Notes: a model not told the origin generated them from the sequence alone. Shown: positions 304 through 53,300, counted from the stretch's first letter. The stretch is DNA of 64,000 nt from Thermoplasmatota archaeon (GCA_016928095.1 JAFGLL010000005.1:1102-65101); one strand, 5' to 3'. Program-made: numbers and translations.

Positions 304-461
304 AGCATCAAAAAAGGTGTCTTCCCATGTGTATTTTCTGCCCGGGTGACTGGGGGTCATTCATGGAACCTTGATACATTGAAGGGGCATGAGAATGAGG
401 GGGACATCTACCCATATCTATTTAGCATAGGTACATTTACATACGTTAGGGATGAACCAAA

Positions 462-989: not shown

Positions 990-1022
990 GGTTGTTGTTA
1001 TTTTAGGGTTCTGTATGGAGGA

Positions 1023-1661: not shown

Positions 1662-1741
1662 CGATCGTTCAATATCAAGCTGCAATACTAATCTTGTGCT
1701 GTAGCCCTTCTTTAAAACAATGCACTTAAGATGATAATCGA

Positions 1742-1749
1742 TAAATATG
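1742..1749 (+). promoter_or_regulatory. TATA-box-like element (ATAAATAT) about 25 nt upstream of the ATG at 1771; likely leaderless transcript
   Basis: AT-rich octamer in an otherwise GC-rich spacer. A second TTTAAAA lies at 1713-1719. Confidence 0.4.
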
Positions 1750-1770
1750 CAGGCTACCTCTTGATGGTGC

Positions 1771-5701: not shown

Positions 5702-5824
5702 AGGTATCACCTGGGGGAGATCTGCCGCGTCGGCATTTCTGGCGACCCCGACGAACAATGAACGGTTACTATTTAATCATAACGAGCATAGGATCATATC
5801 ATCGAAACATATCCCGGGGCCGTC

Positions 5825-6838: not shown

Positions 6839-6907
6839 GAGATCACCTGTTACCCTTATCGGGAGCAGATAGATAAATCTTGGTGGGGGTGGTCTTTTGG
6901 ATGTCGA

Positions 6908-6917
6908 AAAGTATTAA
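6908..6917 (+). promoter_or_regulatory. AAAGTATTAA motif (putative BRE/TATA) 29 nt upstream of the surface-protein gene ATG at 6946
   Basis: An identical decamer recurs at 8105-8114 upstream of the next surface-protein gene. Confidence 0.4.
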
Positions 6918-6945
6918 CCCGTCACAGAACAATTGGGTCAGGGGA

Positions 6946-8085: not shown

Positions 8086-8104
8086 GTGTTTCACAGATGC
8101 ACCA

Positions 8105-8114
8105 AAGTATTAAG
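8105..8114 (+). promoter_or_regulatory. AAAGTATTAA motif, second copy, 82 nt upstream of the ATG at 8196
   Basis: Same decamer as at 6908-6917, in the same orientation. Confidence 0.35.
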
Positions 8115-8195
8115 CAAGGGGAACGGAGATTCCTTTGATATCCGGGTTCGAAGATCACAAAACACGATATTGCATGATATGGTAAACCATGAGGT

Positions 8196-30986: not shown

Positions 30987-33900
30987 TCACTTTTTCGGAG
31001 GTAGGGCCTTCTTACCAGCCTTTTCGCCCTTGAGCTCCTTCCTTCCGGTCTTGCCGTCGGGGATCTGCTTCCTGGGAGTTTCGACGATCTCCGCGTTCTC
31101 CTCCCTCTGCTGCTTGTCCATCCGGTAATAGGCATACCCCATGGCGGCGATTATCAGCAGGAGCAGTACAACGAACACGATCATGAGGGCCTGTACATTC
31201 GACCCGTTCTCATCGTCAGCATCACTATCCGGGCCGACATGGATATCTTTCGGATCGACTACCTGGATGGTCAGAGGCTGGGTATAGGAACTGATCCCGT
31301 CCAGCGAGGTGATGGTGATGTTCAGTGAGTACATTCCCACCTTGGCATCCTTTGCGGCATCGACGTGGAACGTCGTGTTGACGGAGGAGCCCGGTGCCAC
31401 CTCTATCTGGTTCGCGCCCGTCGTGATCTCCATATCCGATCTCAGCAACGCATCTCCATCCACCCTGATCTTGATATTGTCGAAGGTGAACCCGTGGTTG
31501 GAGACCGTCATATTGATGGTCACACCGCTGTCCTGATAGACGACCACAAGCATCCTCTGGAGCTTCAGGACCGGATTGTAAACACCGACGGACATGGAGA
31601 AATGCGATATCGGAGCGAAATCCTTTCCGTCAGAGGAGAGCAGATCGATATAGTACACCCCCTCCTGAAGGGGGGAGAGGATCGGATATCTGGTATCGGT
31701 CAGGACGGATATCCATGGAAGGACATCCGACCCTCCGTAGTATCTTCCTATTCTGATGAAATAATAGACCTTGTCGCCATCAGGGTCCTCTGCCGGCGTC
31801 CAGCTGATCACCGGAGTTCTATCACTGGTCGCCTTCGGCTCGAAGTCCACCACCGGATCGGGCGGGTAATTGGCATCGGTGGATATGATCAGGGTCGAAT
31901 TGGCCGCCGGACCTTTCAAACCATTCGATTCAGGTACGACCTCCACAAGATAGAGGTGACCCGGAACGAATAGCTGGTCGATCTCGGGGTCCCAGTAGGT
32001 GTTCCCGGGAGTTATCTCCTCATCCGTTGCAATGTAGATGAACGAAGACTGGTCGTACACGGATATCCTGTAGGTCACGAGATCACCATCCGGATCGAAC
32101 GAAGGGGACCAGGTGATATGCGGCCTTACGGACCCTGAGACCTTTGGTTGGATGGAGGAAACCTTAGACGGCGGGCGATCTCCCGCTTCTTCCTGGTCCT
32201 CCCGGACCACGATCTGTATGTTGGCGGACAGCCCCGAGTTGCCAAGGAGGTCCCTGGCCCTGACCCGGACGAAATTATAAAAACCGAACGAGAGGGACAG
32301 GTTGAAGCGGATCTCGACCGCATCCTCCACAACCTCATAGCTCCCCTTTATGCTGGACAGGTTCTGCCATGGAAGGAACTTATCTACACCGTCAACTGAA
32401 TAGGAGACATCTATGTTCTCCGGATCGACCCCTATTCCACCATCAGTGATGCTGGCCGTGAAGGACACGACAGTCTCGTTGAAAACGGCCCCCGACCTGG
32501 GTGATGTCATGAGAACGGATGGACCGGTCGCATCCACCCAAACCTTGTAGGTCTCGCTGATGGAGTACTCCTCGTCCTCCCCCCCGTTCCCCAGCATGTC
32601 CTTTGCCCTGAACCTGATCAGGTTATTCATTCCCTCGAGGAATGTGACATTGACATCGTAGAGAACGGTCAGGTTGTCTATTATGTTGACGTCACCCTTC
32701 CTCTGCCATCGGTCCCATTCGCCCTTCTCCTCCTGAAAGGTCTGATAGAATACGGACCATGGATCGACCCCGGAGATATCATCCTTGATCAACAGCTGGA
32801 ACCTTACTATGTTCCGGTCGATCCATTCGTTCTCCTCCGGTTCCCAGAGCTCGAAGGTCGGACCGTTCTGATCGATCTTCGGAAGGTTCATCACGGGGGT
32901 GGTCACCAAGGTCCTGTTCCCGGAAGCGGCCCTTGCCTCGAAGAAGAAGTAGAGGTCAAGCTCTCTTTCAACATCAAGCGAGAGCAGATATGTCTCACCG
33001 TTGCGGTAATCGAAATCCGGGGCCGGGCTTTTTCGCATTGTCATGGGGAAAGGGGAACCGGGGTACGGGAACAGAGACCCGCCCATGGTCCGGTAGGAGA
33101 TGTTCACCTTGGGGAAGCCCAGATCGGGAGGATCGTTCTCGACATCGTAGTAAGTGACCTTGAAATGGAAGGTATCGTCCACGACACCCATCACCGGGTC
33201 CACTGACCCTTCCTCTAGCCTGGGTCCAGAACCGGCTTCCCCGGACTGTGTGGTCCTGGTGAAGAATATATCCGTCTGTCCCTCCCTCCGATTATCTCTC
33301 CAGACGAAATATCCCAATCCTCCATCCTCCACTGCAACTGCCGGATCGTCCTGTACAGTTCCCTGGACCGGCTCGTTCACAGTATAGGTTCGATCGAATG
33401 TTCCATTGGAGAATATCCTTGTCATCATGATATCGGACTTGAAATCAGAGATACCGGGTGATGACGTCCACGCTATGGTGATGTTACCCCCTGTGTCCAT
33501 GGCGATCCTGGGCTCCATCTGATAACCGGAGGTCTCGTTGGGGTGCACGCATCGGTCCAGAGTGAACGTCATACCTAGGTCCATGGATGATGCCATGTAG
33601 ATATCGGCAGAGGTTGATCTGGGGTCCCTCCACACTATGTGAACAACATCCTGGTCCGCTACGATATCGGGCTCGCCCTGGTCCGATCCGGTCGGGTCCC
33701 TGCTGATCCTGATGGACGGATCGAAGGTATCGCCCCCATCCAGCGAGGTGGCCATGTAGATGTCATCGTCCCAGACCCTGTCGTCCACCCAGGTAACATG
33801 AACGCGGTCGCTCTCGGGAAAGCTCACCCTGGGGACAGTGCATTTGTAGATCGTTGTCACGTCGGAGATCTTTACAGCTCCCTCGAAACCGGAACCTCTA

Positions 33901-34487
33901 TCGATCGATCCGTAGATCTGAGGATATCCTGGCCGGTCCCTGGTGTCCTCCCAGACCACTGCCAGCTCATCATAAGGCGAGACATCGATGTCGGGGAAGG
34001 ACTGGGTTCCGGAAAAATGGTCGTTCACCTTGGTGTTGGTCGAATAACTGGACCCGTGATCCTCGGAGCGAGCATAGAATATCATCGACCTGCCTTCGCG
34101 GTCGTCGCTCCATACCACATGGACCGTTCCGTCCGAAGCCACTACCGCATGTGGATACATCTGGCTTGTGAGATCGTCCGTCAAGGTCGCTGTCTTCATA
34201 GTATCGTCCACCCTGACCTCCTGACCAAAGGTCAGACCGCCATCATGCGATGCTCTCGAAAATACATCCCAGTTACCATCCCTCCGGTCCTGCCAGAATA
34301 TGTACACATCATTGCCATCCGCCACGATGTCCGGTGAACTCTGGGACTCGGTGCCAAGGTCCTTGTTGATGATCCGGTCGCTTTCGAAAGCTATGGAACC
34401 CCCGGCATCGTCAACATTGAACAGCATCAAGGTCGTGCACACCAGCATCAAGATGACCAGTGCGCTCCATGCTCTCACGTTGTTCAT
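30987..34487 (-). CDS. Large surface protein with BNR/Asp-box beta-propeller (sialidase-like fold) and FN3-like domains, C-terminal TM with basic cytoplasmic tail
   Basis: ATG at 34487 preceded by GGAGGTGG. Signal peptide WSALVILMLVCTTLML. Asp-boxes SHDGGLTF, SEDHGSSY, SLDGGDTF, SSMDLGMTF. C-terminal TM ALMIVFVVLLLLIIAAMGYAYY plus K-rich tail. The start overlaps the upstream gene's stop (ATGA). Confidence 0.7.
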   Translation of the reverse strand: MNNVRAWSALVILMLVCTTLMLFNVDDAGGSIAFESDRIINKDLGTESQSSPDIVADGNDVYIFWQDRRDGNWDVFSRASHDGGLTFGQEVRVDDTMKTATLTDDLTSQMYPHAVVASDGTVHVVWSDDREGRSMIFYARSEDHGSSYSTNTKVNDHFSGTQSFPDIDVSPYDELAVVWEDTRDRPGYPQIYGSIDRGSGFEGAVKISDVTTIYKCTVPRVSFPESDRVHVTWVDDRVWDDDIYMATSLDGGDTFDPSIRISRDPTGSDQGEPDIVADQDVVHIVWRDPRSTSADIYMASSMDLGMTFTLDRCVHPNETSGYQMEPRIAMDTGGNITIAWTSSPGISDFKSDIMMTRIFSNGTFDRTYTVNEPVQGTVQDDPAVAVEDGGLGYFVWRDNRREGQTDIFFTRTTQSGEAGSGPRLEEGSVDPVMGVVDDTFHFKVTYYDVENDPPDLGFPKVNISYRTMGGSLFPYPGSPFPMTMRKSPAPDFDYRNGETYLLSLDVERELDLYFFFEARAASGNRTLVTTPVMNLPKIDQNGPTFELWEPEENEWIDRNIVRFQLLIKDDISGVDPWSVFYQTFQEEKGEWDRWQRKGDVNIIDNLTVLYDVNVTFLEGMNNLIRFRAKDMLGNGGEDEEYSISETYKVWVDATGPSVLMTSPRSGAVFNETVVSFTASITDGGIGVDPENIDVSYSVDGVDKFLPWQNLSSIKGSYEVVEDAVEIRFNLSLSFGFYNFVRVRARDLLGNSGLSANIQIVVREDQEEAGDRPPSKVSSIQPKVSGSVRPHITWSPSFDPDGDLVTYRISVYDQSSFIYIATDEEITPGNTYWDPEIDQLFVPGHLYLVEVVPESNGLKGPAANSTLIISTDANYPPDPVVDFEPKATSDRTPVISWTPAEDPDGDKVYYFIRIGRYYGGSDVLPWISVLTDTRYPILSPLQEGVYYIDLLSSDGKDFAPISHFSMSVGVYNPVLKLQRMLVVVYQDSGVTINMTVSNHGFTFDNIKIRVDGDALLRSDMEITTGANQIEVAPGSSVNTTFHVDAAKDAKVGMYSLNITITSLDGISSYTQPLTIQVVDPKDIHVGPDSDADDENGSNVQALMIVFVVLLLLIIAAMGYAYYRMDKQQREENAEIVETPRKQIPDGKTGRKELKGEKAGKKALPPKK

Positions 34488-37400
34488 TGCCCCACCTCCC
34501 ATTCATCCTCATCATCCGGATCTTCCTCCTCCATCTCCAGGTCCTCGAGGTCCTCCTCATCGTAGAGGTCAAGGTCCTCCTCATCCACCTCTTCCTCTTC
34601 CTCGTCCTCCTCCTCGTCCGATACCGGAATTTCCTCTGCCTCATCGTTCACATCCTCTTCCGTTAGTTCCTCCGGTTCCTCCTCCAGGTCCTGGTCGGTA
34701 TCTTCCACCAGTCCCTCCTCACCAGGTTTTAAAAGGAGCTCTTTCCTTTTCCGTCCTCTCTTCTTTTTACCTGCCTTTTCCATCTTTACCTTGTCCTCGG
34801 CTGTGAAAACGGAACCGCATTTCATGCAGTACTCGTCCGTTAGCCTGACATCGTTTCCGCAGTAAGGGCATACCGGAACAAAGTGGTCAGGTTCGTAAAC
34901 AGCATCCACCAGAGGTTGATCGGGCTCGCGTGGAGATCCCGATCTGCTCCTTTTTATCAGCAGATAGACCAGCAGCCCACCTATGATGAGGCCGATGAGG
35001 AGAGAGACCAGCAGGAGCGGGAACCAGTCACAGAACCTGTCCCATATCGAACCTTTGTTCCCGCCATCTCCCGATGACTCCTCATCCTGCACAACAACAC
35101 TTAGGAGGTACCTTTCGGATTCAACCACATTCTTTCCGTCGGAGACCACCAGCCATATCCTGTGTACACCGGGAGTGTTCAATGTTGCATTGAGGACCCT
35201 TCCGCTGCCCAGGCTGTCCTGCAATGGATAGAACTCGAGGTCGGAATACCAGACATAAGTGAGTTCCAGTCCTTCCGGATCGTATGAGACCGACCCATCA
35301 AGGACAATGGTATCACCCTGCTTGATGGTGTCCACGGCCGGGTAGATCGTGAAGACCGAGATCGGTAGGAGGTCCCTTTCGGTGATCGCAACCTCTATCT
35401 TGACAGGGGCCGAGACCACCCATCCGTTGCCAGCACTGTCTATGACCCGGAACTTTATCTGGTTGAAAGGACCTTCGTCGAAGAGGACCTCGACGGAAGC
35501 TGCGTACGACCCGCCCCCCCGATCCTCCAGATCGTCAACCTTCAGCCACGGGGAATACCCACCAACACCAAATTGGACCCACCCGCTAATCGTCGAATAG
35601 GAGAACTCTACATTGGATGTTTCCAATCCGGACCCCTCCTCCATTATGAAAGCGGTCACCATCACATCTCGGTCCCTGAGCACCGTGGACCCGTTGGGGA
35701 GGAAACCGTTGAATACGGGCATCTCGTCATCTATGTAGATAGAAACGAGATCGCTCTCCACCATATTTCCCGCAATATCGCTCACCATCCACTGGCCGAA
35801 ACCCCAACCACGGTAGGATGGTAGTACATTGACCGAAGGGGAAGCGCTGGCACCGGCTCCGGACATACCCAGATCGGTCCAGGGCAGGGTATAAAGCTCA
35901 TCCCTCGAGCCGATCCGGTAGTTTATGGAATCCAGCAGGAGACCCGATCCGGTATCCTCGATATAACAGCCCAACGAGAAGGATCCCGGACCGACAAGCA
36001 TGCCGTCCTGATCGCCGATATCGATGGTGGGAAGGTTGATGTCCATATTGTAGGAGAATGGAAGAGATATCGAGGTCTGTCCGGCCAGATCGCTCACCTT
36101 CCATTGTATGTAATTCCCGAAACCATTGGCGGAGGGGACCGTCGCATTCAACCGGACTGAACCATCGAAGGTCGTGATCTCCCTGACAGGCATCCAATCC
36201 GATAAGATCCTCACATCCGAGCGGAAGACCCGATACATTGCAGAGGATATGTCGATACCCACACCGTCATCGGAGACCATTATGGAAAAGCCGTTCGTGA
36301 AGTCGTTTATCCATGCGTTATCCCCTGGGAGAGCACCGTAGAACCTGGGATCATTGATATCCAAAAATAAGGTACGGTTCTCGAAAGGACCGATGTTCCC
36401 GGCCCTGTCACAGGCGAAGAACGAGAGGGTATAGGCTCCTCCGGGAAGGAATATCAGATCGCCGGGGACCAGGTAATCCATCTCAGAAATGATGTTCAGA
36501 TCCTGCCCCAAGACCCGCAGGGTGTAGTTCGATATACCGGAACCTCCCTGGTCCGAAACCTCGGTCCAGTAGACCTCTATGAACTGATCATCATCCACGT
36601 CCGAGATGCCGGATTCCTTCCCGTCGGGGAAGATATTGAAAGATGAGACCGGAGGTGGTTTTACCGTATCGACGTTTAGCTTGAAGGTTACATCCTGACT
36701 CCATTCGGCCCCCCTGGGAAGCGTCCCGTTCGTCAGCCTGTATGTCAGGTCCCTTCCATATAACCCCCCACCAGGAACGGCTGTGATATTGTCCAGGAAG
36801 GACCCGTTCATAACTGCCTTACCGATGGTGATACCATCGGGGCGTTTCAGGGATATCTCCACTCTCGTGGCGTTGGGACCGAACGGTACTCCGGATGTCC
36901 CGTGGACCAGTGAGACATTGCAGACATTGAATTCCGAATCCTCCTTCATCCAGCCTTTGACGGGGGATCCTTCGGGGTCAAGTACCTTGAGATATGAGCT
37001 GTCCAGCCCGATCTCCCTATCGACAACGAACTCGTCGTTGAGGTAATTGGAGTGCGATCCGACCGTGCCACTGGTCGAGGTCACTATCAGGTCGGGGTCC
37101 GGAAGGTCCCAGCCGACCTTGACCATGAACACAACGAACCAAGATTGGACCCCATCGGTCCTGCCAGTACTCAGTGAAGGATATAACATGAGCTGGTCCT
37201 CGAAGTCCCCGGTGGCGATGATGGAGAATTCTTTGGTAGATGTGTCGAAGCTGAGCTCGGCGAAACCTGCAGCATCCTGGCTCATCATCTGGACATTTAC
37301 TGTGTCAATATGTTCGTAACCTACCTGGGAGCGTGCCGCTACCTTGAACTGATAAGGACCCTCCCCGGGTGCCAGGATATCCCTTGGTCTATCGAGTGGG

Positions 37401-40400
37401 CCGGCTATCTCCACAGCGCCTGAGATCTCAAGGGGTTGGGTCCTTACCGATAGGCTGAACAGGTCCTTCCCCTCCCAAAGATATACCACGCCAGGGCTGC
37501 TGCCGTCCAGCAAGGGATCGGCACCCGGAGCTCCGATGAACAGGTCATACTTGCCATCACCCGTGATGTCCTTCCCCGCAAGGGCGGACCCTGCCTCATC
37601 ATTGTCCATGAAGCCGGAGATCAGCGGCAGGGAGGAAGTATTGATGGTCAAAGAGGAGGTCAGTAAAGAATGTGGGAACACATGGACACAACCCGTGACG
37701 AGACCGCTTATCGGGTCCTGAAACCCCTTGGCCCCTATGAACACGTCCAGATCTCCATTCCCGTCAATATCCCCCAGGTCCACCGAGGATCCGGTCCTCT
37801 GATTGACCTGATCACCGCATACCGACACATTGAACTCTGTCCTCAGGGAGATCGTTCCCGAGGGCATCCTTGATGCAAGGAACTCCCCCTGAAGTATGAA
37901 TAGGTTCCCTCCTTCCTTGACGGTTCTCTGAAATCCATCTCCCGATGGGCTTCCCAGGAAGAGTTCGGCCTTCCCATCATCATCCATATCCCTGGCCACA
38001 AGAGATGATCCCACCTCATCATAGGGCCAGGCTCCGAATATACGAAGGCTCGGTTCTGTTACAAGATCGATATCCTGGTTCCAGGTACTCCTGCCCCGCA
38101 GGACATAGGTCACTCCCTGTCTGGTGATGGACCCGGCCTTCGACTTGGGTGCCCCTATCGCCAGGTCACCGATCCCGTCCCCATCCATGTCATCGATGGC
38201 CAGGGTCTCCCCGATGAACTCTGTATCCTCCGTTCCGATGATCTTGACATCATAGATATTGCGGACGCTCCTACTTGTCGTTCCGGAGAGGGGTCCGAAC
38301 ATGATATAGACCATTCCGGCATGGTACCTGTCAGCGGTCTCGGCTCCGTGATCGTAGGGAGCGCCGAATGCCAGGTCGTCGATCCCGTCACCGTTCAGGT
38401 CTCCCACTGCAATTGCGGACCCGATCCGTTCGACAAGGTAGCCGGTATAGGTCAGGTTGGTTCTGGTCATCATGTAGGACCTCGTGCCCCCCCAGAAGAT
38501 GTGGACACTTCCAGCGTCGTTGTACAGCCCGCTGATCTGTGCGGAGGGCGCACCGACCACAAGATCGGGATAGCCATCATTGTTGAGGTCTCCTGTTGCC
38601 ATTGCCCAGCCGAAACGGGAAAAGCTCATGGCATCATTGTAGCGAATATCAGTAGAATCCGCTGCGTAATATCTGCCGCTCCAACCAGCTGGCTCACCGA
38701 AGAACATATGCGCGTATCCTGTCCGACCCGGGTCACCTCCGAGATAATCCCCCACTACCAGGTCATCGTTCCCATCCTGGTCGAAGTCCTCCACTACCAT
38801 CGCGGACCCGAAGCAGGAGGCATTGAACTGACCGACGAACGATGCATCGAAAGAACTTGATTGAGATAGGAAGCTTACAAGGCCGGTCCCCACCGTGGGG
38901 CCCAGATCGACGACCTCTTTGGGGGAGGATATCAGGACCTCCTCCTGACCGTCGATCAGCATCTCCGATGCGGCCATGCTCTGGAAAGCACCGCATTCCC
39001 TTGACCTGCCCTTGTATGCTTTTATGGAGTCTTGGAATGTGAGGACGGAAGGGAACGATCCATCAATGTCGAACAGATAGGCCTCTCCGCAGTCGAACTC
39101 AAGGTTGTCCACACCGTCACCTCCCGGTGCGGCTACAAGCAGTTCGTCGTAACCATCACCGTCAATATCCGCCCCGAGGGTCGTCTTCCCCCAAAGATCG
39201 GATGAATCCACTCCGTACGATGTTGTACTGGCATCCGAACGCCCCAGCTGAATGTCGGTTGTGACATTGCGTCCGATGTGGATATCGAACTGTCCGGCCT
39301 TCTTCCTCCAGGTTTCCACACCAGGTGCATAGGGAAGGCCGATCACGAGATCGTCCTCATCCCCGCCCCCAAGGTCCGCGAACGTCAGGGAAGCCTCCTC
39401 CCAACCACCGGATCGGAGGCTGAACTGAACATCTGGATAGAAATCTGTTCCCTGGTGGACCTGGATGTCGGTTCCCAGAGGGACCCCCGGATATGTGTAA
39501 CCCCCGAGCATGATGACGGCATAACCCTCCCCATTGAACCTGTAGCTGAACGAGAGATCGCCAATGGAATCTCCATTGAAATCCCCCACTGCCAGGCCAT
39601 TCCCTATATGAGTGGCATATGCATCGGCGGTCACGACGGCTTCTCCGAAATATCTTACCATGGGTCTGGAAAAGGAAAGATCGACCGTACCAATGCCCGT
39701 TCCAACCCCTTTGATCACCTCGATCTCCCAGGAGCCAAAGCATTCGTTATCATATTCGGATTCGACCGGATCAGCTTTCCCACCGTGCCCCTCGCTCCGT
39801 ATTACCAATTCAGGTACACCATCGTCGTCGAGGTCGCCCGCCTCGAGAGCAGTACCCAGCCGGTCGCCACCTTCCCTGCCGTATACATGACAGAAAAGCC
39901 CCACCCTGTCGATCTGCATCGAAGTACCAAAGGAGACCCGCTGCCTGCCCGTTATCACATAAACCTCTCCCGAGTCCCTCCGGCCGTTCAGGGGACCATC
40001 TGCAAAGGGAGCTCCGATCATCAGATCGTCCCTTCCGTCCAGGTTGAGGTCCTCAACGAGAAGGGAGCTTCCGAACCAATCATCGACATCACCCGCTGTA
40101 ATGACAAGGTCAGCATCGTAGTGCCCGATCAATGTGAAAAGTTCATCCGGTTCACGAGCAAAATATACCATAACCGCACCTCCACCCGCACCAAGTCTTG
40201 ACATCGGGGCCCCGATCACGATGTCACCCCTTCCGTCTCCGTCGAGGTCGCCGGATGCGACCGTTGAACCGAAGGGTACCCCCGATTCTCCCCCCAGTAT
40301 GGACATGGTATCATCCCTGCCAAGGACCACGTATGAATCCTGGTCCAGGGATGCGGGGGTTTCAGACCGTGTTTCGTTCCCCCCGATTACCGTTGGCAGG

Positions 40401-40501
40401 GCTGATGTTATTAGGGTGATCATTATTACAAGAGATGATAGTACGGGACTTCGGGACACGCTCTTCCTCCTCTTGATATTGGTCAGGTGGCATTTGCGCA
40501 T
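34484..40501 (-). CDS. Giant (2005 aa) integrin-alpha-like surface receptor: ~14 FG-GAP repeats (two beta-propellers), Ig-like domains, TM helix, cytoplasmic zinc ribbon and polyacidic tail
   Basis: ATG verified at 40501. FG-GAP/Ca-binding repeats such as GDLDGDGRGDIVIGAP, EDLNLDGRDDLMIGAPF, GDLNNDGYPDLVVGAPS, DDMDGDGIGDLAIGAPKS. TM LLLVSLLIGLIIGGLLVYLLI. Cytoplasmic CPYCGNDVRLTDEYCMKCG followed by ~75 residues that are mostly D/E. Confidence 0.75.
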   Translation of the reverse strand: MRKCHLTNIKRRKSVSRSPVLSSLVIMITLITSALPTVIGGNETRSETPASLDQDSYVVLGRDDTMSILGGESGVPFGSTVASGDLDGDGRGDIVIGAPMSRLGAGGGAVMVYFAREPDELFTLIGHYDADLVITAGDVDDWFGSSLLVEDLNLDGRDDLMIGAPFADGPLNGRRDSGEVYVITGRQRVSFGTSMQIDRVGLFCHVYGREGGDRLGTALEAGDLDDDGVPELVIRSEGHGGKADPVESEYDNECFGSWEIEVIKGVGTGIGTVDLSFSRPMVRYFGEAVVTADAYATHIGNGLAVGDFNGDSIGDLSFSYRFNGEGYAVIMLGGYTYPGVPLGTDIQVHQGTDFYPDVQFSLRSGGWEEASLTFADLGGGDEDDLVIGLPYAPGVETWRKKAGQFDIHIGRNVTTDIQLGRSDASTTSYGVDSSDLWGKTTLGADIDGDGYDELLVAAPGGDGVDNLEFDCGEAYLFDIDGSFPSVLTFQDSIKAYKGRSRECGAFQSMAASEMLIDGQEEVLISSPKEVVDLGPTVGTGLVSFLSQSSSFDASFVGQFNASCFGSAMVVEDFDQDGNDDLVVGDYLGGDPGRTGYAHMFFGEPAGWSGRYYAADSTDIRYNDAMSFSRFGWAMATGDLNNDGYPDLVVGAPSAQISGLYNDAGSVHIFWGGTRSYMMTRTNLTYTGYLVERIGSAIAVGDLNGDGIDDLAFGAPYDHGAETADRYHAGMVYIMFGPLSGTTSRSVRNIYDVKIIGTEDTEFIGETLAIDDMDGDGIGDLAIGAPKSKAGSITRQGVTYVLRGRSTWNQDIDLVTEPSLRIFGAWPYDEVGSSLVARDMDDDGKAELFLGSPSGDGFQRTVKEGGNLFILQGEFLASRMPSGTISLRTEFNVSVCGDQVNQRTGSSVDLGDIDGNGDLDVFIGAKGFQDPISGLVTGCVHVFPHSLLTSSLTINTSSLPLISGFMDNDEAGSALAGKDITGDGKYDLFIGAPGADPLLDGSSPGVVYLWEGKDLFSLSVRTQPLEISGAVEIAGPLDRPRDILAPGEGPYQFKVAARSQVGYEHIDTVNVQMMSQDAAGFAELSFDTSTKEFSIIATGDFEDQLMLYPSLSTGRTDGVQSWFVVFMVKVGWDLPDPDLIVTSTSGTVGSHSNYLNDEFVVDREIGLDSSYLKVLDPEGSPVKGWMKEDSEFNVCNVSLVHGTSGVPFGPNATRVEISLKRPDGITIGKAVMNGSFLDNITAVPGGGLYGRDLTYRLTNGTLPRGAEWSQDVTFKLNVDTVKPPPVSSFNIFPDGKESGISDVDDDQFIEVYWTEVSDQGGSGISNYTLRVLGQDLNIISEMDYLVPGDLIFLPGGAYTLSFFACDRAGNIGPFENRTLFLDINDPRFYGALPGDNAWINDFTNGFSIMVSDDGVGIDISSAMYRVFRSDVRILSDWMPVREITTFDGSVRLNATVPSANGFGNYIQWKVSDLAGQTSISLPFSYNMDINLPTIDIGDQDGMLVGPGSFSLGCYIEDTGSGLLLDSINYRIGSRDELYTLPWTDLGMSGAGASASPSVNVLPSYRGWGFGQWMVSDIAGNMVESDLVSIYIDDEMPVFNGFLPNGSTVLRDRDVMVTAFIMEEGSGLETSNVEFSYSTISGWVQFGVGGYSPWLKVDDLEDRGGGSYAASVEVLFDEGPFNQIKFRVIDSAGNGWVVSAPVKIEVAITERDLLPISVFTIYPAVDTIKQGDTIVLDGSVSYDPEGLELTYVWYSDLEFYPLQDSLGSGRVLNATLNTPGVHRIWLVVSDGKNVVESERYLLSVVVQDEESSGDGGNKGSIWDRFCDWFPLLLVSLLIGLIIGGLLVYLLIKRSRSGSPREPDQPLVDAVYEPDHFVPVCPYCGNDVRLTDEYCMKCGSVFTAEDKVKMEKAGKKKRGRKRKELLLKPGEEGLVEDTDQDLEEEPEELTEEDVNDEAEEIPVSDEEEDEEEEEVDEEDLDLYDEEDLEDLEMEEEDPDDEDEWEVGQ
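34492..34499 (-). promoter_or_regulatory. Shine-Dalgarno GGAGGTGG, 4 nt upstream of the ATG at 34487
   Basis: Placement favours the internal Met as the true start. The same motif recurs before the ATGs at 42546, 24506 and 27732. Confidence 0.5.
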
Positions 40502-40653: not shown

Positions 40654-41061
40654 ATGAACGAAAATGACAGCGTTCTCAGGTCGAAAATGACCGTTAATGA
40701 CCTCGGTGGTCCGATCGTGGATGACAGGTGTAGATCTCTTAGGATCGCCTGCCACGGTGACCCTGACCGATGTTTCTGGCTAAGAGGGAGACCTTTACCT
40801 CTCTGTTCGCGATGCACGACATTCTACCCCTCTATACTGATCGGTCTGGTCCTGGGGATCCCCCTTGTCATCACTCTGGAGATCTCTGCATTGATCGTCC
40901 TCATATCATTCATCCTGCTCCAGCTCCCGCTTGTTATCGACGGCTTCACGCAGTACAATGGTTGGAGGAGGTCCAACAATGTATTGAGAGCGGTCACCGG
41001 TGTCCTCTCAGGGTTCGGTATCGGTGGTGGAATAACCTACATGATGACAACGATCTTCTGA
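40654..41061 (+). CDS. DUF2085-family membrane protein
   Basis: CFWLRGRPLPLCSRCTTFY matches the DUF2085 signature. Three predicted TM helices. An alternative ATG at 40687 is possible. Confidence 0.6.
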   Translation: MNENDSVLRSKMTVNDLGGPIVDDRCRSLRIACHGDPDRCFWLRGRPLPLCSRCTTFYPSILIGLVLGIPLVITLEISALIVLISFILLQLPLVIDGFTQYNGWRRSNNVLRAVTGVLSGFGIGGGITYMMTTIF

Positions 41062-41062
41062 T

Positions 41063-41463
41063 TCAGTAGAAGCTCTTGCACTTCGGGCAGAACCAGGATT
41101 CCACCCTCTCTTTATAGACCATTCCGGTCCCGCAGACCGGGCAGGATTCACCTTTCTTCTTCTTACCGTCCTGGTCCATGAACATCCTATCGTATGCCGG
41201 CTCTTTCTGTACCCCTGCCTCATCGGGGCCTTTGAAATCAAAATCATCACTGGAGTGGGACGCGATCTTCTGCCCGGCCCCGCATTCGGAACATCTTCCG
41301 GATCCCTTCGAGACCTTCGCGCCGCAGTTCCAGCATTTTATCTTGGAGGCTTTTTTTACAGGTCGTTGAGGTTCGATCTCATCCTCTTCTTCATAAGAGG
41401 ACGAGCGCTTCTTCTTTTTTTTCTTGTGAGGGGGTTCCTCTTCGACCGCTAGAGAGGCTTTAC
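41063..41463 (-). pseudogene. Out-of-frame (+1) continuation of the poly-Glu zinc-ribbon gene, encoding two further zinc ribbons; probable frameshift at an A10 homopolymer
   Basis: Frame is open from 41463 with no ATG before KIKCWNCGAKVSKGSGRCSECG...CPVCGTGMVYKERVESWFCPKCKSFY*. It opens with EEEPPHKKKKKKR, continuing the repeat style of the upstream ORF. A stop lies just upstream in this frame. Confidence 0.45.
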
Positions 41464-42546
41464 CTACCTTCTTTTTTTTTTCCTCTTGGGAATATCTATC
41501 TCCTCATCCTCTTCATGATGAGCCGGATGCTTCTTCTTCATCTTGCGGGGAGGTTCTTCTTCATCATCGTCATAATTGGTCGGACGCTTCTTCTTCTTCA
41601 TCTTGCGGGGAGGTTCTTCTTCTTCCTCTTCCTCCTCGGGTTCTTCCCTCAGAACACCTTTACGACCGCAATCATCGCATATGAATTTCAATGGTCTCCT
41701 TCTGGACCTTATCTTGATGATATTTCCGCATTTACACCGGATCTTGAGGACTTCTTCCTCCTCGTCTTCTTCCTCCTCTTCGTCCTCTTCCTCTTCCTCC
41801 TCTTCCTCTTCTTCCTCTTCGTCCTCTTCCTCTTCCTCCTCCTCGTCCTCTTCCTCTTCCTCCTCCTCGTCCTCTTCCTCCTCCTCGTCCTCTTCTTCCT
41901 CCTCGTCCTCTTCCTCTTCTTCCTCCTCGTCCTCTTCCTCTTCCTCCTCCTCGTCCTCTTCCTCTTCTTCCTCCTCGTCCTCTTCCTCTTCCTCCTCCTC
42001 GTCCTCTTCCTCTTCTTCCTCCTCTTCTTCCTCTTCGTATCGATCTCTGGACTTCTTCTTTCCAGTTCCCACTACGAAGATCTCCTCCTCATCATCCTCG
42101 AGGCTTATAGGACGGTAGCTGGACCTTACAGCTCCCTCATCTCCATCGCTGGTGATGTCAAAGCCTCTCTTTTTTACTGGCTTCTTCCCCTTCTCCTCAC
42201 CTTTTGGTTTCTTTTTTGAGACAGTGGTCTCTTCTTCCAGAACCACCTTCTTCTTGAGAGGCTTGCCCTCGTCCTTGTGCTTCTTTTTAAGAGGCTTTTC
42301 CCCGTCAGTATGCTTCTTCTTGAGAGGCTTGCCTTCGTCAGCATGCTTCTTCTTCAAAGGCTTGCCCTCGTCCTTGTGCTTCTTTTTAAGAGGCTTCTTC
42401 TCGGGAACCCCGTACTTTTCCTCGTATTTTTTAGCGAACACCCTGGCCTTCTTGGCAAGGTCCCCCTTGGGGACCCAACCACATTCTTGACACCTGTCAA
42501 AGGGATAATCCATTTTAGCCTTGCATTTCTTGCACGGGACCTTCAT
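41464..42546 (-). CDS. Cytoplasmic multi-zinc-ribbon protein with five KPLKKKH(K/A/T)DEG repeats and a ~94-residue poly-Glu/Asp tract
   Basis: ATG at 42546 (MKVPCKKCK) preceded by GAGGTGGG. The track ORF starts at ATG 42573. Zinc ribbons CKKC...CQECG and CKCG...CDDCG. E/D tract encoded at 41758-42039. C-terminal EEEPPRKMKKK repeats. The ORF stops just after an A10 run. Confidence 0.6.
   Translation of the reverse strand: MKVPCKKCKAKMDYPFDRCQECGWVPKGDLAKKARVFAKKYEEKYGVPEKKPLKKKHKDEGKPLKKKHADEGKPLKKKHTDGEKPLKKKHKDEGKPLKKKVVLEEETTVSKKKPKGEEKGKKPVKKRGFDITSDGDEGAVRSSYRPISLEDDEEEIFVVGTGKKKSRDRYEEEEEEEEEEEDEEEEEEEDEEEEEEEDEEEEEEEDEEEEEEEDEEEEEDEEEEEDEEEEEEEDEEEEEEEDEEEEEEEEEEEEDEEEEEDEEEEVLKIRCKCGNIIKIRSRRRPLKFICDDCGRKGVLREEPEEEEEEEEPPRKMKKKKRPTNYDDDEEEPPRKMKKKHPAHHEEDEEIDIPKRKKKRR
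41758..42039 (-). repeat. Imperfect GAG/GAA/GAC trinucleotide array (~94 codons) encoding poly-Glu/Asp
   Basis: The plus strand reads (CTC/TTC/GTC)n with a periodic 7E+D or 5E+D pattern. Visible directly in the sequence at 41.76-42.04 kb. Confidence 0.9.
42250..42399 (-). repeat. Five tandem 33-nt repeats encoding KPLKKKH(K/A/T)DEG
   Basis: The plus strand shows five iterations of gaggcttgccctcgtccttgtgcttctttttaa-like units. Confidence 0.85.
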
Positions 42547-42715
42547 CCATCCCACCTCTTGTATCGATGACATACATCATGCATACAAAATAAAAAGGTT
42601 TCCCACTTTTTCAATGATTCTTCATCACCTATGTATAGGAACCCGCAGATATCATCATTTGCCTCCGATGGAGGCTGACCCGCGGTCTCCACGGAGGGTG
42701 GACGGTCCAAGACTG

Positions 42716-45700
42716 TCAGTCCGCCATCATTTCTCTATCCTCTTCCGAGGCTCCCGCTCCATCAGGGTCAATAAGGTCCTCCGGTCCGGGATGGCTGATC
42801 TCTTCCTCCCTGTGATCCTCCATAGGATGATCGCCGGATGGACCCTCATCCAATGAGCCCTCCTCGATCTCGTCCTCGGGAAGGTCCATTCCGCATTCAG
42901 GGCAGTAGGACATGCTTTCCTCGATGGACGCACTGCAGAAAGGGCACTCCTTACGGGTCATTTTCTCCTGCTCGGACCATGTTGGTCCATCGTTCGTCTT
43001 CTCCGGTTCGGCAGCTTCTTCCGATCCCTGCGTCATATCATCTTTTCTCTTGTGGAACAGGACGACCGCCAAGATCACCGCCCCCAGCAATATGATGATG
43101 ACGACCACTATCAATATAACAAGCCAGAGTCCAGAACTCGTTCCATCCACCTCTGGAACACTTTCAGGATCAAGGGGGTCCGAACCCTTCTCGTATTCCT
43201 CCAGGTTCGTATAACCGTCCACATCCATATCACCCTGGGCATCTGATGCCCATTTCGGGTTCATTCCCCAACCTACTTCTATACCGTCCGGAATGCCGTC
43301 ATCGTCCGTATCGGGATTGTCCGGTTCCGTCCCCAACTGGTATTCCTGGAGGTTTGTCAGTCCGTCCCTGTCCTGGTCTTCGGCCGCATCCGTATTGTCT
43401 GCGGGGGACAGGAAATCGTAGCCGATCTCGTAGATGTCCGGTATGCCGTCACCATCCCCGTCGATATCCTCGACCGAGATGGTCCTGAACGTGATCACGA
43501 GATCATTTGCGGAATTCCCGCTAAGGTCCCTGATGGGTCCAAGGGTGAAGGTATAGTTCGTTCCATCCTGGAGTGAATCCTCAGGGTGATAAGTGATGGT
43601 CCTGGTCTCCACGTTCAGTTCGAAATCAAGTATCACGGAGGAATACCCGCCCTCGGGGACCAAGGATGCCAGAAGAGCATCCCATTCTATGAGCTCGGAG
43701 AACCTTATGGAGATAGAGGGTCCGAGTTCGATGTTGACCGCTCCATCCTCCGGTTCGACCGATATGACACCCGGTGCCTGAGTGTCCGGGATGGCCACGA
43801 TGAGATCATACTCCAGGGTCTCCCAGTTCCCCGCGATATCGTAACCTGTTACCGTCAAAGAATAGGAACCGACATCAAGGTCTATCGATAGGTCCGTTCC
43901 CTGGACCTCTTCATAAGTGTAGTTGTTCGAAATGGTCCAGGTGACATGATCGACCCCGCTCTCATCGGTTATATTCAGCTCAAGGTCGACGTTCTGTCCC
44001 TCGTAGGACATGATCGTCCCTCCGTCGACCCCCTCTATGAACATTTCAGGGTCCTTCAGGTCCACCCATATGTTCGATGAGTTAAATGGACCAGCATTCA
44101 GGGATGGGTCAATGGACCTGAACTGGGCAGTGTGTTTTCCTTCGTTGAGGAAGAAATAGTACTGGAATACACCCCCATAGGTGGTCCATCTCTCTATTAT
44201 CCCTTCGGGGTCCGTGAAATCCTTTCCGTCCAGCTTGATCTCGATCACTGTCCTGTTCTCTCCTGTGACATTGACCTTGAACCCAACGAGAGATGTGTTG
44301 AAGAACAAAGAGCCAGGTATATACTGTACTGCATCCAAGGGGAAGAACTCAAGCCTTGGTGCGACAGGGGGTGTAATATCAAGGGTTGTAAATGCTACGG
44401 TCGAAGATGGAGGGCCGAAGTTCGGGGTCTCGGCATCATCGACCGCAACGATATAGGCTTCTATCTCGGTTTCGGAGGGCAGGCCGGTGATCTTCTCGGT
44501 CACTGACATCCAGTTGTCGATATAGATCGAGAGGTTCCATGAACTATCGACGGCTTCCAAGAATATCCAGAAGCCGATAATATCATCACTTGGACTTGGG
44601 GTCCATTTCAGCTGCACCCAATCCCCTCCGAAACCCTCTACAGTGAAATTCCTGGGAGGTTGGGGTGGAATGATATCGAGGGTCTTTCCAAAGACCGGAC
44701 CGAAGAACCCCAACGTATTTGCATAATAATCCTCTGATCGGATGCTGATATTCCAGAGAGTATCATGCTCCAGGCCATCGATGATGAAACTCCTTGCCTT
44801 GTCCTTGGCATTCACGGACTTGGTCTCGGAAATATGAGCGCCATCTCTCCTGTAATCTATTCTGAACCATTGTAGATCTCCCGGAGGGTTCGGAAGGTCC
44901 CATAGAACTTCTATCGTTGTCCCGGTCCTATTGCCGACGGTCAGGTTTTCCACTTTTGGAGGTGGTGTGAAATCCAGGTACCAGGTCATATTGAAGTTAT
45001 CTCCAATAAAAAGACCCGGATCCTTGAGGTCGTTCCGCCAGTATGCTGCTGACGCGGACCGCTCCCACCTCATTGTGATCTCGACCTTGACAGACGATGT
45101 GGATCCCATATGCTTGTACTGATTGACAGCAATAGGAGGCATTATTCCATCCGATCCGGTCACCAGACCGGTCAATGTGGGATCGAAGACCGTCCATTCA
45201 TCAAGCTCGGTCGGATATTTTTTACCATATACCTTGACCGATACAAGATCCACACCCTTTTGTTCGTAATCATCGATCGCCCTTAAGAAGAACCATTTAC
45301 CCTCGTGCACTTCTGCAGAACTCTGAGCCGTGACGTTTCTTGGAGCGTTGAATGTGCAGTTGACGACCCAGCCATAGCCACCCGTCATACCCCTGAAACC
45401 TGCCGAATTCCCCATGAGGGTCGAATTGTAGACATATGCTCTTGACCCCATGCCCATCGTCTTTACCCCTCCAGCAGACCCCATCATCAGTATATGGTCC
45501 AGGTATCCGTATCCTCCCTGAGTGATGTTGATACCATCGTAAAAGAAGGATGTATGAGATCTATCGAAAATTATTGGAGATGCTTCTGTTCCGGCGGCCA
45601 GAATGGCACCTTCCACCCAGATCCCGACCGACGGAGGGAGTTGGACCGTAACTCCGGGATCGATCCTCAGGGTCCTGCCCACAGGTACTGACACGTTCCC

Positions 45701-45898
45701 CTCGAGCAATACGGGGGAGTCTGCAATTCCCCATCGGGTGTCACCGGTAAGAGGCCCCTCCGGGACCACGATCCCCGACACTATCTCGGGAACCATGAAC
45801 GTGAAGATGAGGGTCAGTGACGATAGAAGCAGTAAGGATATCACTGCCATGGTCGACAAGTTACGAGAACTGGCGGTGTAATTTATATCGAGGCCCAT
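42716..45898 (-). CDS. Large (1060 aa) surface protein with thrombospondin type-3-like Ca-binding repeats, TM helix, cytoplasmic zinc ribbon and acidic tail
   Basis: ATG verified at 45898 with GGAGAG upstream. N-terminal anchor [23 protein letters not shown]3-like DxDxDGxxD repeats ([38 protein letters not shown]). [27 protein letters not shown]. Cytoplasmic [19 protein letters not shown] followed by a D/E-rich tail. Confidence 0.65.
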
Positions 45899-46006: not shown

Positions 46007-46207
46007 TTATATCAGACTCCAGACCCAACCCTTCTTTGCAGGGTCCATCCGGCTCTTGATGATACCTTTGGTCTTCATGAGCATCAGCGTCCTTACCGCC
46101 CCGTCGGGACAGGCCTCTCCTCTCCTCTTGATCTCCCTCTCAAGCTCCGAGGTGGACATCTCCCCTTGCTCCCTAAGGATCTTCAATATCTTCTCTTCTT
46201 CCGTCAT
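46007..46207 (-). CDS. Small winged-helix DNA-binding protein (putative transcriptional regulator)
   Basis: 66 aa. EEKILKILREQGEMSTSELEREI is HTH-like, followed by a beta-hairpin wing KGIIKSRMDPAKKGWVWSL. ATGA overlap with the upstream SNF transporter gene. Confidence 0.45.
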   Translation of the reverse strand: MTEEEKILKILREQGEMSTSELEREIKRRGEACPDGAVRTLMLMKTKGIIKSRMDPAKKGWVWSLI

Positions 46208-52163: not shown

Positions 52164-53300
52164 CTAATTATAGAGCGGGACCGGAAGCTTCTTTCTCCTC
52201 CGACGTTCGACGTTCCTGGAATAATGCCTCCTCTTCCTGTATCCCACGAAAAGGTCCGTGATGTCCTGCGACCGTGATTTCTTGAACGATGACCTTTTCA
52301 GGTACCCCCGATCCTCCGCGTTCCTCACAAGCTCCATACCCCTGTCGGTCCTTATCACCGGGGCTCCGAAAGAGATATCCGAGAGCTCGCCTGAATAGTC
52401 CGGACAGAACATGCACCTGGGCCATTTGGGACCCATATTGACGTTTCGGAGAAAACTGCTGATGAGCATCTCCTTTGTTATGATATTTCCATCGATGGTC
52501 CTGACCTCCAATCCGATCCTTGTCGAGGAGACCTTTCGATAACGGAAGGACCTTACATTATTCGCGGGGACGTCCATCAACCTCGATACCGTCGCTCTCC
52601 AACCATCCTCGCTCATATTGGGAGCTCCGCAGTTCAATGATATCAGGTATTCGATCTTCGATGTGAGGTGTTCCAAGGCAGGGTCGGCCTGCATGTTCCT
52701 CACCGCCTGGACCTGACATGGCAGGCCAACGACTGCGATCTTCTTGATATCCGGGTCCTTTTGGACCAATGGTAGCAACGTCAGCACCGAGCTGAAAACA
52801 TATTTGGATGATGCAGCCTGGATGACCTCCTCCTTTGTCCGGGCTATGATCCCTTTCCCGGTCGATAGACTGCCATTGTCCGACCAGTCGGTGACCAGTG
52901 CAGCATCGATCGATCGCGCCTCCAGTGCGGCGGCCAGGACAGAAGATACCCTGCCCCCGAAATATCCGGCCTTCATGAATTCCCGGGAGACAGAGGTCAG
53001 ATGCCTCCTCTCTTGGTATATTCCGTTCTTCCCCCCTGGGCGGGACCTCCTTGAACGTGAGAAAAGACGCTTCTCATGGGCCGACATGTCCACACCTTTT
53101 CCGGGACATATCCTGAGACATGCTCCGCATTTGATACAATCGCCGATCAGCACAATACTCTCTTTTCCAAACTCAAGGACATTGACCGGACAGGAAGCAA
53201 CACATCCCCCGCAACGGGTGCACAGCCCTGCATCCACGACCTCCCTTCTGAGGTCCTCGAAACCCACCCCGTTCAGAAGACAACCTCCCTCAACCTTCAT
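52164..53300 (-). CDS. Coenzyme F420-dependent oxidoreductase beta-subunit family protein (FrhB/FdhB/FqoF-like) with N-terminal 2x[4Fe-4S] ferredoxin domain
   Basis: CTRCGGCVASCP and CIKCGACLRICP ferredoxin motifs. FrhB_FdhB N and C regions follow (VVGLPCQVQAVR, LISLNCGAP, CMFCPDYSGELSDISFG). Start taken at ATG 53300 (GGTGGA upstream) to avoid a 62-nt overlap. Confidence 0.65.
   Translation of the reverse strand: MKVEGGCLLNGVGFEDLRREVVDAGLCTRCGGCVASCPVNVLEFGKESIVLIGDCIKCGACLRICPGKGVDMSAHEKRLFSRSRRSRPGGKNGIYQERRHLTSVSREFMKAGYFGGRVSSVLAAALEARSIDAALVTDWSDNGSLSTGKGIIARTKEEVIQAASSKYVFSSVLTLLPLVQKDPDIKKIAVVGLPCQVQAVRNMQADPALEHLTSKIEYLISLNCGAPNMSEDGWRATVSRLMDVPANNVRSFRYRKVSSTRIGLEVRTIDGNIITKEMLISSFLRNVNMGPKWPRCMFCPDYSGELSDISFGAPVIRTDRGMELVRNAEDRGYLKRSSFKKSRSQDITDLFVGYRKRRHYSRNVERRRRKKLPVPLYN

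Follow-up and report, generated by a model that had tools for sequence, protein, structure and literature searches.

A zinc-ribbon and polyacidic cytoplasmic tail conserved on a giant FG-GAP surface protein of Thermoplasmatota: a possible electrostatic docking or clustering element

The subject of this analysis is a 64,000-nucleotide (nt) stretch of DNA from a Thermoplasmatota archaeon (GCA_016928095.1, JAFGLL010000005.1:1102-65101; the whole stretch is referred to below as the window) and, within it, the gene for a giant type-I surface protein of 2005 amino acids (aa) whose last 156 residues, beyond a single transmembrane (TM) helix, carry a zinc ribbon, a basic region and a long run of acidic residues. 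We tentatively propose that this tail may serve as an electrostatic platform for docking or clustering on the cytoplasmic side of the membrane. An initial annotation of the window, made from the sequence alone, had placed a zinc ribbon followed by a tail rich in Asp and Glu (D/E) at positions 34487-34955, and that description proved accurate. On translation, nt 34487-34955 (-) correspond to aa 1850-2005, the whole stretch C-terminal to the TM helix; the ribbon CPYCGNDVRLTDEYCMKCG is located at aa 1878-1896, and 48 of the final 75 residues (64%) are D/E with no K or R among them, as compared with 14.9% D/E in the ectodomain. The open reading frame (ORF) and the parts of its tail, as defined by translation, alignment and an AlphaFold2 (AF2) model, are as follows.

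34484-40501, minus strand: gene for the giant type-I surface protein, 2005 aa (ORF translation)
34955-35023, minus strand: TM helix FPLLLVSLLIGLIIGGLLVYLLI, aa 1827-1849, with GxxxG (LIGLIIG) (hydropathy scan, AF2)
34871-34954, minus strand: juxtamembrane stop-transfer sequence KRSRS and conserved linker PLVDAVYEPDHFVP, aa 1850-1877 (alignment, AF2)
34811-34870, minus strand: four-Cys zinc ribbon CPYCGNDVRLTDEYCMKCGS, aa 1878-1897 (motif, Pfam, AF2)
34721-34810, minus strand: helix VFTAEDKVKMEKAG, polybasic KKKRGRKRK and LLP-type motif, aa 1898-1927, net charge +8
34487-34720, minus strand: polyacidic tail, predicted to be disordered, aa 1928-2005, 78 residues, net charge -50

The tail starts KRSRSGSPREPDQ and runs in order through KRSRSGSPREPDQPLVDAVYEPDHFVPV, the ribbon and VFTAEDKVKMEKAGKKKRGRKRKELLLKPG into the 78 acidic residues, which end DEDEWEVGQ before the stop codon. 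The four cysteines have the pattern C..C-x10-C..C (CPYC-x10-CMKC, nt 34817-34870), and Zn_Ribbon_1 (PF13240) was matched with 26.4 bits when the 168-aa tail was searched alone and with 22.6 bits when the whole protein was searched (gathering cut-off 25); the orthologue P0015 has a precomputed PF13240 match. At a Cys content of ~0.8%, arithmetic gives an expectation of ~0.01 CxxC-x(5-25)-CxxC motifs by chance in six frames of 64 kb, and since the motif is, besides, invariant across complete orthologue C-termini, the ribbon is not a chance occurrence. The protein begins with a signal-like hydrophobic segment (hydropathy scan) and contains ~14 FG-GAP/Ca-loop repeats (loops of the DxDxDG type) at a spacing of ~65-70 aa, 12 of them recognized by regular expression and two degenerate ones by eye, which is enough for two seven-bladed propellers; Pfam FG-GAP was matched at 2.8e-71 in nine stretches. 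Between the propeller repeats and the TM helix lies an Ig-like/PKD-like stalk, for which the PKD_4 match is weak. The same protein has been deposited, with identical sequence, as MBN1389098.1, [quoted passage not shown]. The tail region is overlapped by an antisense ORF at 34300-34806 (+), which is probably a by-product of the GAG/GAA-rich codons of the opposite strand. An Rfam scan of 33500-36000 gave a single snoRNA-like match, which was sub-threshold and was dismissed.

The signal-like N-terminus and the one C-terminal TM helix in the hydropathy scan identify a single-pass type-I protein, bearing out the receptor-like topology that had been proposed. Summed over 24 orthologues, the K and R residues within 15 aa of the TM helix number 29 on its N-terminal side and 74 on its tail side. 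Sequons (NxS/T) number 12-24 per ectodomain and are absent from the tails of 23 of the 24 orthologues, with one in the tail of P0007. The tail lies in the cytoplasm, because the positive-inside charge distribution, the sequon distribution and the signal-like N-terminus all orient the protein in this way; neither the charge bias nor the sequons predict a tail outside the cell, and the cytoplasmic assignment made in the initial annotation stands.

Database searches returned ~24 full-length orthologues (P0001-P0024) of ~2000 aa with 100 to 37% identity, all from Thermoplasmatota/Thermoplasmata metagenome-assembled genomes (MAGs) or from metagenome contigs without a name. We prepared an alignment of 22 sequences (A1) and one of 21 sequences that covers the entire tail including the TM helix (A2). 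The layout is the same in all complete C-termini, and the four cysteines, the conservation of which the initial annotation had singled out for checking, are invariant, their spacing being identical in the 22 complete orthologue tails and in P0028, a 2311-aa relative with 24% identity and the same tail plan; no departure from this arrangement was seen. Invariant in A1 are C-P-x-C, Y-C-x-x-C-G and a following F, to which A2 adds both glycines of the GxxxG in the TM helix (G20 and G24), D72, D86 and a C-terminal Trp. The linker (PLVDA.YEPD), the post-ribbon segment VFT..DK..M (F and D invariant), the K-rich patch and the LLP/LPP motif are also conserved at the sequence level. The acidic segment is kept in length (87-127 aa after the ribbon) and in composition (33-57% D/E). 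When the 185-aa tail alone was used as query in a word-index homologue search nothing scored, the candidates being swamped by poly-E words. We considered a coiled coil in the acidic tail and rejected it: in one orthologue tail, read by eye, hydrophobic residues are spaced 3,5 (an 8-residue repeat), which points to slippage repeats rather than to an amphipathic helix, and AF2 predicts no helix there.

An AF2 model of the tail was built on A2. Its predicted local distance difference test scores (pLDDT) were >90 for the TM helix, ~80 for the linker and 94-96 for the ribbon (94-97 for TM helix, ribbon and following helix together), and a helix was predicted over FTAEDKVKMEKAGKKKR (model residues 84-100) with a pLDDT of ~95. 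The remaining ~88 residues had pLDDT values of 42-60 and no secondary structure, so that the structure prediction suggested in the initial annotation yields a confident ribbon and helix with a disordered remainder. A Foldseek search of the modeled tail against the PDB gave no match with E below 1; non-significant local superpositions of 22-25 residues at ~1 Å were obtained with RanBP2/NZF (ZRANB2) fingers and with archaeal L40e. These are zinc ribbons of minimal size whose ligands are proteins or RNA.

The end of the giant gene overlaps the start of the next gene, and it contains a further signal at the nucleotide level:

34493-34499, minus strand: Shine-Dalgarno sequence GGAGGTG within codons W2001-E2002-V2003 (codon conservation, overlap)
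30987-34487, minus strand: BNR/beta-propeller-like type-I protein, ~1166 aa, translationally coupled (Pfam, NCBIfam, overlap)

The GGAGGTG sits 5 nt upstream of the ATG of the downstream gene (34485-34487), and by its gene arrangement the giant is translationally coupled to this BNR-like type-I partner. Nine such junctions were examined (the window, L001, L002, L003, L124, L125, L022, L064, and L123). In every one the downstream start overlaps the giant's stop codon, as ATGA, TTGA or GTGA, and in all nine the C-terminal W-E/G-V of the giant, exactly two codons short of the stop, is encoded by TGG GAG GTG or TGG GGG GTG. The Val codon is GTG in 9/9 against a background of 22-39% of the Val codons in the same genes (P ~2e-5), and with GAG and GGG included the joint probability is ~3e-8. 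Within the window SD-like motifs, i.e., Shine-Dalgarno (SD) candidates, precede 15 of 35 genes, mostly internal operon genes, as compared with a background of 17%. The invariant W-E/G-V and its fixed distance from the C-terminus are best explained, in the main, by a dual-coded SD. We had regarded W-E-V as a candidate docking peptide of the type found at the SSB tip or in the WASP acidic region, and demoted it because its synonymous positions do not vary and the start of the next gene overlaps: with codon choice constrained by an SD, conservation of the Trp does not demonstrate a peptide motif. Only in P0028 (ending LSWD) is a terminal Trp found without an SD role.

The BNR-like gene probably starts at the ATG at 34487 (MNNVRAWS...) and not at the in-frame upstream ATG at 34502, the equivalent of which runs into a stop codon in L001. 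It adjoins the giant in all related loci examined, where its product is ~1170-1195 aa, and in locus L126 it precedes the giant; the pairing therefore predates this gene order. The cytoplasmic tail of the BNR-like partner is basic and contains LPP, the same combination of basic region and LPP that is seen after the K patch of the giant.

The initial annotation had regarded the combination of TM helix, ribbon and D/E-rich tail as a non-standard layout and had recommended a search for other proteins of this kind. The search was run and several were found, one of them in the window itself:

42716-45898, minus strand: second type-I adhesin, 1060 aa (fn3, Big_5), with TM helix, ribbon and acidic tail (Pfam, motif)

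The ribbon of this second adhesin is at nt 42893-42946, and its four cysteines are conserved in 6/6 loci, while across the six loci its acidic tail is conserved by composition only. An exhaustive profile search with A1 over 1.84 billion representatives gave 2371 matches at E <= 1e-3. The complete module (TM helix, linker, ribbon, helix, and K patch) was present only in the giant family, fragments, P0028 and P0163, and six unrelated surface proteins (P0237, P0254, P0188, P0249, P0203, and P0192) had a C-terminal TM helix followed by one to six ribbons among acidic runs; P0192, from a Thermoplasmata MAG, is the only one of the six with a taxon label. We also scanned GTDB genomes at the DNA level with the degenerate pattern CP.C-x9-YC..CG..F and examined 120 matches among the matches listed. 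These came from Firmicutes, Chloroflexi, Bacteroidota, Asgard archaea, methanogens and others, with a TM-like segment just upstream of the ribbon in 33, just downstream in 27 and none nearby in 60. The generic TM-then-ribbon cases among the 120 mostly stop right at the ribbon. Among the matches listed, long acidic tails occurred only in Thermoplasmatota giants, and at least five loci belonged to the giant family (L022, L028, L064, L108, and L123). To judge from these comparisons the ribbon is of the generic membrane-proximal Zn_Ribbon_1 type, spread over bacteria and archaea, and what is specific to the family is the linker, ribbon, helix, K patch and polyacid combined on this ectodomain. The layout is consequently not unique, and less unusual than proposed, given the second adhesin of the same locus, the unrelated surface proteins and the 60 of 120 generic ribbons that lie beside a TM-like segment. 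In the full-text literature we found no description of this tail or of an FG-GAP/zinc-ribbon protein in Thermoplasmatota.

The accompanying statement that the neighboring genes end in short basic tails is wrong as a generality: the other large type-I proteins of the window have tails of 8-44 residues, but the second adhesin at 42716-45898, with its TM helix, ribbon and acidic tail, does not fit. Four large type-I proteins have very short tails with acidic C-termini, namely those at 11838-14594 (-), ending SEDWVEE, 1771-4746 (+), ending GPVLEE, 8196-11834 (+), ending HDIPEE, and 53290-56829 (-), ending GKWTEDEG, and the acidic C-termini may be a feature that these four share. The gene at 11838-14594 (-) is convergent with its neighbor, so the Trp in its product is not explained by a downstream SD. 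In L126, positions 2-1786 (+) encode a partial 594-aa protein with a ribbon, CPNCGTEVIETDEFCPVCG, and ~90 acidic residues rich in D/Y/F that end DEEDW; it adjoins the BNR-like gene upstream, and GAGGAGGA again acts as the SD of the next gene. As this protein also joins ribbon and acid, the design is common to at least two proteins in a distant lineage.

Several smaller genes accompany the giant in the window:

40654-41061, plus strand: DUF2085 membrane protein with N-terminal Cys cluster (Pfam 2.8e-25)
41063-41503, minus strand: small double zinc-ribbon protein, CWNCG..CSECG and CPVCG..CPKC (motif)
41464-42573, minus strand: soluble 369-aa charged zinc-ribbon protein (motif, composition)
46007-46207, minus strand: stand-alone winged-helix protein, 66 aa, at the head of the locus (Pfam HTH_12 23.1 bits, cut-off 21.4)

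The gene neighborhood is kept in related loci from 76% to 37% identity (L001, L002, L003, L124, and L125) and is conserved in the further metagenome loci L127, L128 and L130. Its order is Peptidase_M14, an SNF transporter, the winged-helix protein (66-80 aa), the ~1060-aa ribbon-tailed adhesin, the soluble charged ribbon protein (312-397 aa), the small double-ribbon protein, DUF2085 (on the opposite strand), the giant, the overlapping BNR-like gene, and AMP-binding and HpaB genes. The winged-helix protein, directly upstream of the ~1060-aa adhesin, has weak Penicillinase_R/BlaI-like similarity and is a possible regulator of the locus; orthologues are at L001 4115-4339, L003 4226-4429, L124 4707-4949 and L125 4463-4705. 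Of the five related loci, L001, L002, L003 and L124 contain DUF2085, and none was called in L125. In L002, DUF2085 and the giant are separated by an additional FG-GAP/PA14 type-I protein of 1472 aa (5255-9673, minus strand), which has no ribbon and whose short acidic tail ends REIDEE.

The 369-aa protein consists of an N-terminal ribbon, lysine-rich repeats (net +17, with five KPLKKKH repeats), a poly-E/D block (net ~-75, with ~115 consecutive near-pure E/D residues), a second ribbon (CKCGNIIKIRS..CDDCG, in its locus-wide form CKCGNIIKI..CDECGRKG) and a K/E-rich end. It is found near the giant in L001, L002, L003, L124, L125, L127, L128 and L130. Among its orthologues (312-397 aa) the charged blocks vary widely in length, and three short islands are conserved, namely the two ribbons and GFD..DEGAVRSSYRPISLEDDEEEIFVVG. 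The protein has no Pfam or NCBIfam match, and a word-index search with its N-terminal 72 aa gave no candidates; the wider distribution of the family was probed through a metagenome scan. Orthologues of the small double-ribbon protein occur in L001, L002, L003 and L125. In the window its ORF has no ATG, GTG or TTG upstream of the first ribbon, and the overlap of its frame with the end of the 369-aa gene spans an A10 run (41472-41481). In L001 the orthologue, 115 aa long, is encoded separately and begins with an ATG of its own. The anomaly in the window could stem from a non-canonical start, from a frameshift or from an indel in the assembly.

Comparison with known systems places the parts of the tail individually. 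The ribbon resembles Zn_Ribbon_1 (PF13240) and DZR (PF12773) domains, such as the N-terminal ribbon of TcaA-type proteins, in its two CxxC knuckles with a ~10-residue spacer (CPxCG...(Y/F)CxxCG) and in adjoining a TM helix immediately at its cytoplasmic face, and the NCBIfam TcaA model matches the giant tail weakly. Unlike a generic Zn_Ribbon_1, it lies C-terminal to the TM helix of a giant type-I adhesin and has beyond it a conserved helix, then a polybasic patch, then a polyacidic tail of 80-100 residues. Anti-sigma factors of the ZAS/zf-HC2 class are likewise single-pass proteins with a small cytoplasmic zinc domain, which in the ZAS case holds a soluble partner; however, the ZAS pattern is HxxxCxxC and N-terminal to the TM helix, in contrast to the C-terminal CxxC...CxxC of the giant, no Pfam zf-HC2 match was obtained on the giant tail at E <= 10, and no sigma factor gene is present in the locus. 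To our knowledge archaea have no sigma factor. An archaeosortase-type signal (PGF-CTERM and relatives), which directly precedes a terminal TM helix with just a few basic residues beyond it, was also looked for, and in the giant there is no PGF or PEF motif before the TM helix, which is followed by 156 residues. Acidic tails that end in an aromatic residue are familiar from the bacterial SSB C-terminus, the acidic "A" region of WASP-family proteins and the tails of ribosomal stalk P-proteins. Like them, the giant has a long acidic disordered segment, with a conserved Trp among its last five residues, but, unlike in those docking tails, its W-E/G-V codons form the SD of the overlapping downstream gene.

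The initial annotation had called the giant integrin-like. Blades of integrins alpha-V, alpha-4, alpha-5 and alpha-IIb are the nearest solved sequences (E down to 4.6e-11), and an Ig-like stalk, a single TM helix with GxxxG and the pairing with a second co-expressed type-I protein (here seen as gene coupling) are further likenesses to integrin alpha chains. The tail of integrin alpha-IIb runs basic, PPL, acidic. Where integrin alpha has seven repeats in a single seven-bladed propeller, the giant has ~14; no Integrin_alpha2 (thigh/calf) match was found in it by Pfam at E <= 0.01, and its tail contains no membrane-proximal GFFKR. Its coupled neighbor is BNR/beta-propeller-like, without a VWA match, unlike integrin beta with its beta-I/VWA domain, and its tail, unlike those of integrins, is 156 aa long with a zinc ribbon. 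We know of no integrin with a zinc-ribbon tail. The term is a fair one for the repeats of the giant and fails on the other integrin-alpha features.

A signaling or docking role, as suggested in the initial annotation, is plausible. Our preferred interpretation, to which we assign a rough probability of 0.4, is that the tail acts as an electrostatic docking or clustering element in the cytoplasm. The ribbon, helix and lysine patch would sit at the inner face of the membrane, and the acidic segment would project into the cytoplasm as a docking or clustering platform, where it is predicted to bind lysine-rich partners. First candidates for these would be the K-rich 369-aa ribbon protein, encoded two genes upstream, by way of its +17 region, and the basic tail of the BNR-like partner. 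In this way the surface proteins encoded in the locus would become linked or clustered, perhaps with a specific protein-protein contact contributed by the ribbon. Both the tail (+8 and -50) and the 369-aa neighbor (+17 and ~-75) carry opposite charge blocks. Several points weigh against this interpretation. The choice of partners draws solely on gene neighborhood and charge complementarity, and as the acidic block of the 369-aa protein is far larger than its basic block, simple charge pairing is not obviously favorable. Distant homologues of the 369-aa protein occur without an FG-GAP giant in their ~8-10 kb flanks (L131 761-1720 and L132 8775-9734), hence the tie between the giant and the soluble ribbon family is not a strict one. 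(These homologues have 47% identity over the second ribbon and lie beside a different large ORF.) TM-adjacent zinc ribbons are, moreover, common and functionally uncharacterized, so the ribbon could have a generic, non-signaling role. Finally, the acidic segment aligns poorly by sequence and contains short GAG/GAC-type codon repeats that resemble slippage products.

This last point, i.e., that the acidic segment is conserved only in composition and length and has slippage-type repeats, means that a non-specific role would fit it equally well, and it leads to the first alternative, a passive anchor with a charge brush, which we consider possible though doubtful. The ribbon would then be a fast-folding plug that, together with the lysine patch, fixes the C-terminus inside the cell and strengthens the anchoring of a ~1800-residue ectodomain held by one helix, and the acidic part, lacking a dedicated partner, would act non-specifically, as a spacer (entropic or electrostatic) or as a buffer for cations. 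Such a role is consistent with the repeat-like codon arrays of an acidic part that keeps nothing beyond composition and length, with the many unrelated membrane proteins that end in a ribbon straight after the TM helix, and with the nucleotide-level explanation of the sole sharply conserved C-terminal "motif". It accounts poorly for the sequence-level conservation of the PLVDA.YEPD linker, the post-ribbon helix, the K patch and LLP/LPP, or for the persistence in the locus of soluble ribbon proteins of complementary charge, and the other large type-I proteins of the window manage with tails of 8-44 residues.

Signal transduction through the tail is, in our estimation, unlikely. By this account ligand or force would alter the packing of the TM helix at GxxxG or undo an intramolecular contact that the lysine patch makes with the acidic segment, exposing the ribbon and basic region to an effector, e.g., the winged-helix protein; alternatively, intramembrane proteolysis would free the tail as a soluble regulator. 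The invariant GxxxG, the adjacency of the opposite charge blocks (+8, then -50), a design analogous to that of membrane-tethered regulators, and a conserved winged-helix protein in the locus, with its weak BlaI/Penicillinase_R similarity, would all suit such a role. The conserved core of the locus, however, includes no protease, kinase or recognized signaling domain, a histidine kinase near some of the loci lying outside that core, the ribbon does not match TFB/TFIIB or anti-sigma zinc domains, and AF2 shows no confident fold-back of the tail.

Less probable again, and in our view quite improbable, is a two-subunit archaeal analogue of an integrin complex, in which the giant and the BNR-like partner would pack through GxxxG and their tails would be read by the soluble zinc-ribbon polyampholytes as adaptors. 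On that reading the adaptors and the winged-helix regulator would couple attachment outside the cell to organization or gene expression inside it, and the likeness to integrins would reflect either an independent origin or only the FG-GAP propeller common to both.

Very unlikely, finally, is that the ribbon and lysine patch bind RNA or DNA at the membrane, with the acidic tail as an autoinhibiting mimic of nucleic acid. The idea is suggested by the polybasic patch adjoining the ribbon, by the nearest local structural matches (RanBP2/ZRANB2 fingers, of the single-stranded RNA-binding type, and archaeal L40e) and by weak NCBIfam matches of the tail and of a neighbor to the S27ae and L37ae ribbons; none of these matches reaches significance (E above 1, or scores far under the family cut-offs), RanBP2-type fingers bind proteins too, Ran and ubiquitin among them, and the locus has no nucleic-acid-related genes. 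That the tail is extracellular, or results from a gene call that wrongly reads on into low-complexity sequence, is refuted by the in-frame tails with the identical overlapping stop in 22 orthologues from independent assemblies, by the junctions, and by the positive charges and sequons that place the tail in the cytoplasm.

Each component is already known by itself, whether the FG-GAP surface protein, the Zn_Ribbon_1 close to the membrane or the disordered acidic region; it is their combination that is new. The invariant WEV peptide, in being the ribosome-binding site of an overlapping gene, illustrates a trap for motif hunting in compact operons, and the value of the present findings is in this caution and in a conserved locus that can serve as a testable system. 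The functions of the cytoplasmic ends of archaeal surface proteins are almost entirely uncharted, and the giant offers an example that is conserved and, by structure prediction, structured. If its tail does recruit the soluble, extremely charged zinc-ribbon proteins that a fixed set of neighboring genes encodes, it would represent a tractable case of inside-outside coupling at the archaeal cell surface and would provide a role for the very common membrane-proximal Zn_Ribbon_1 domain.

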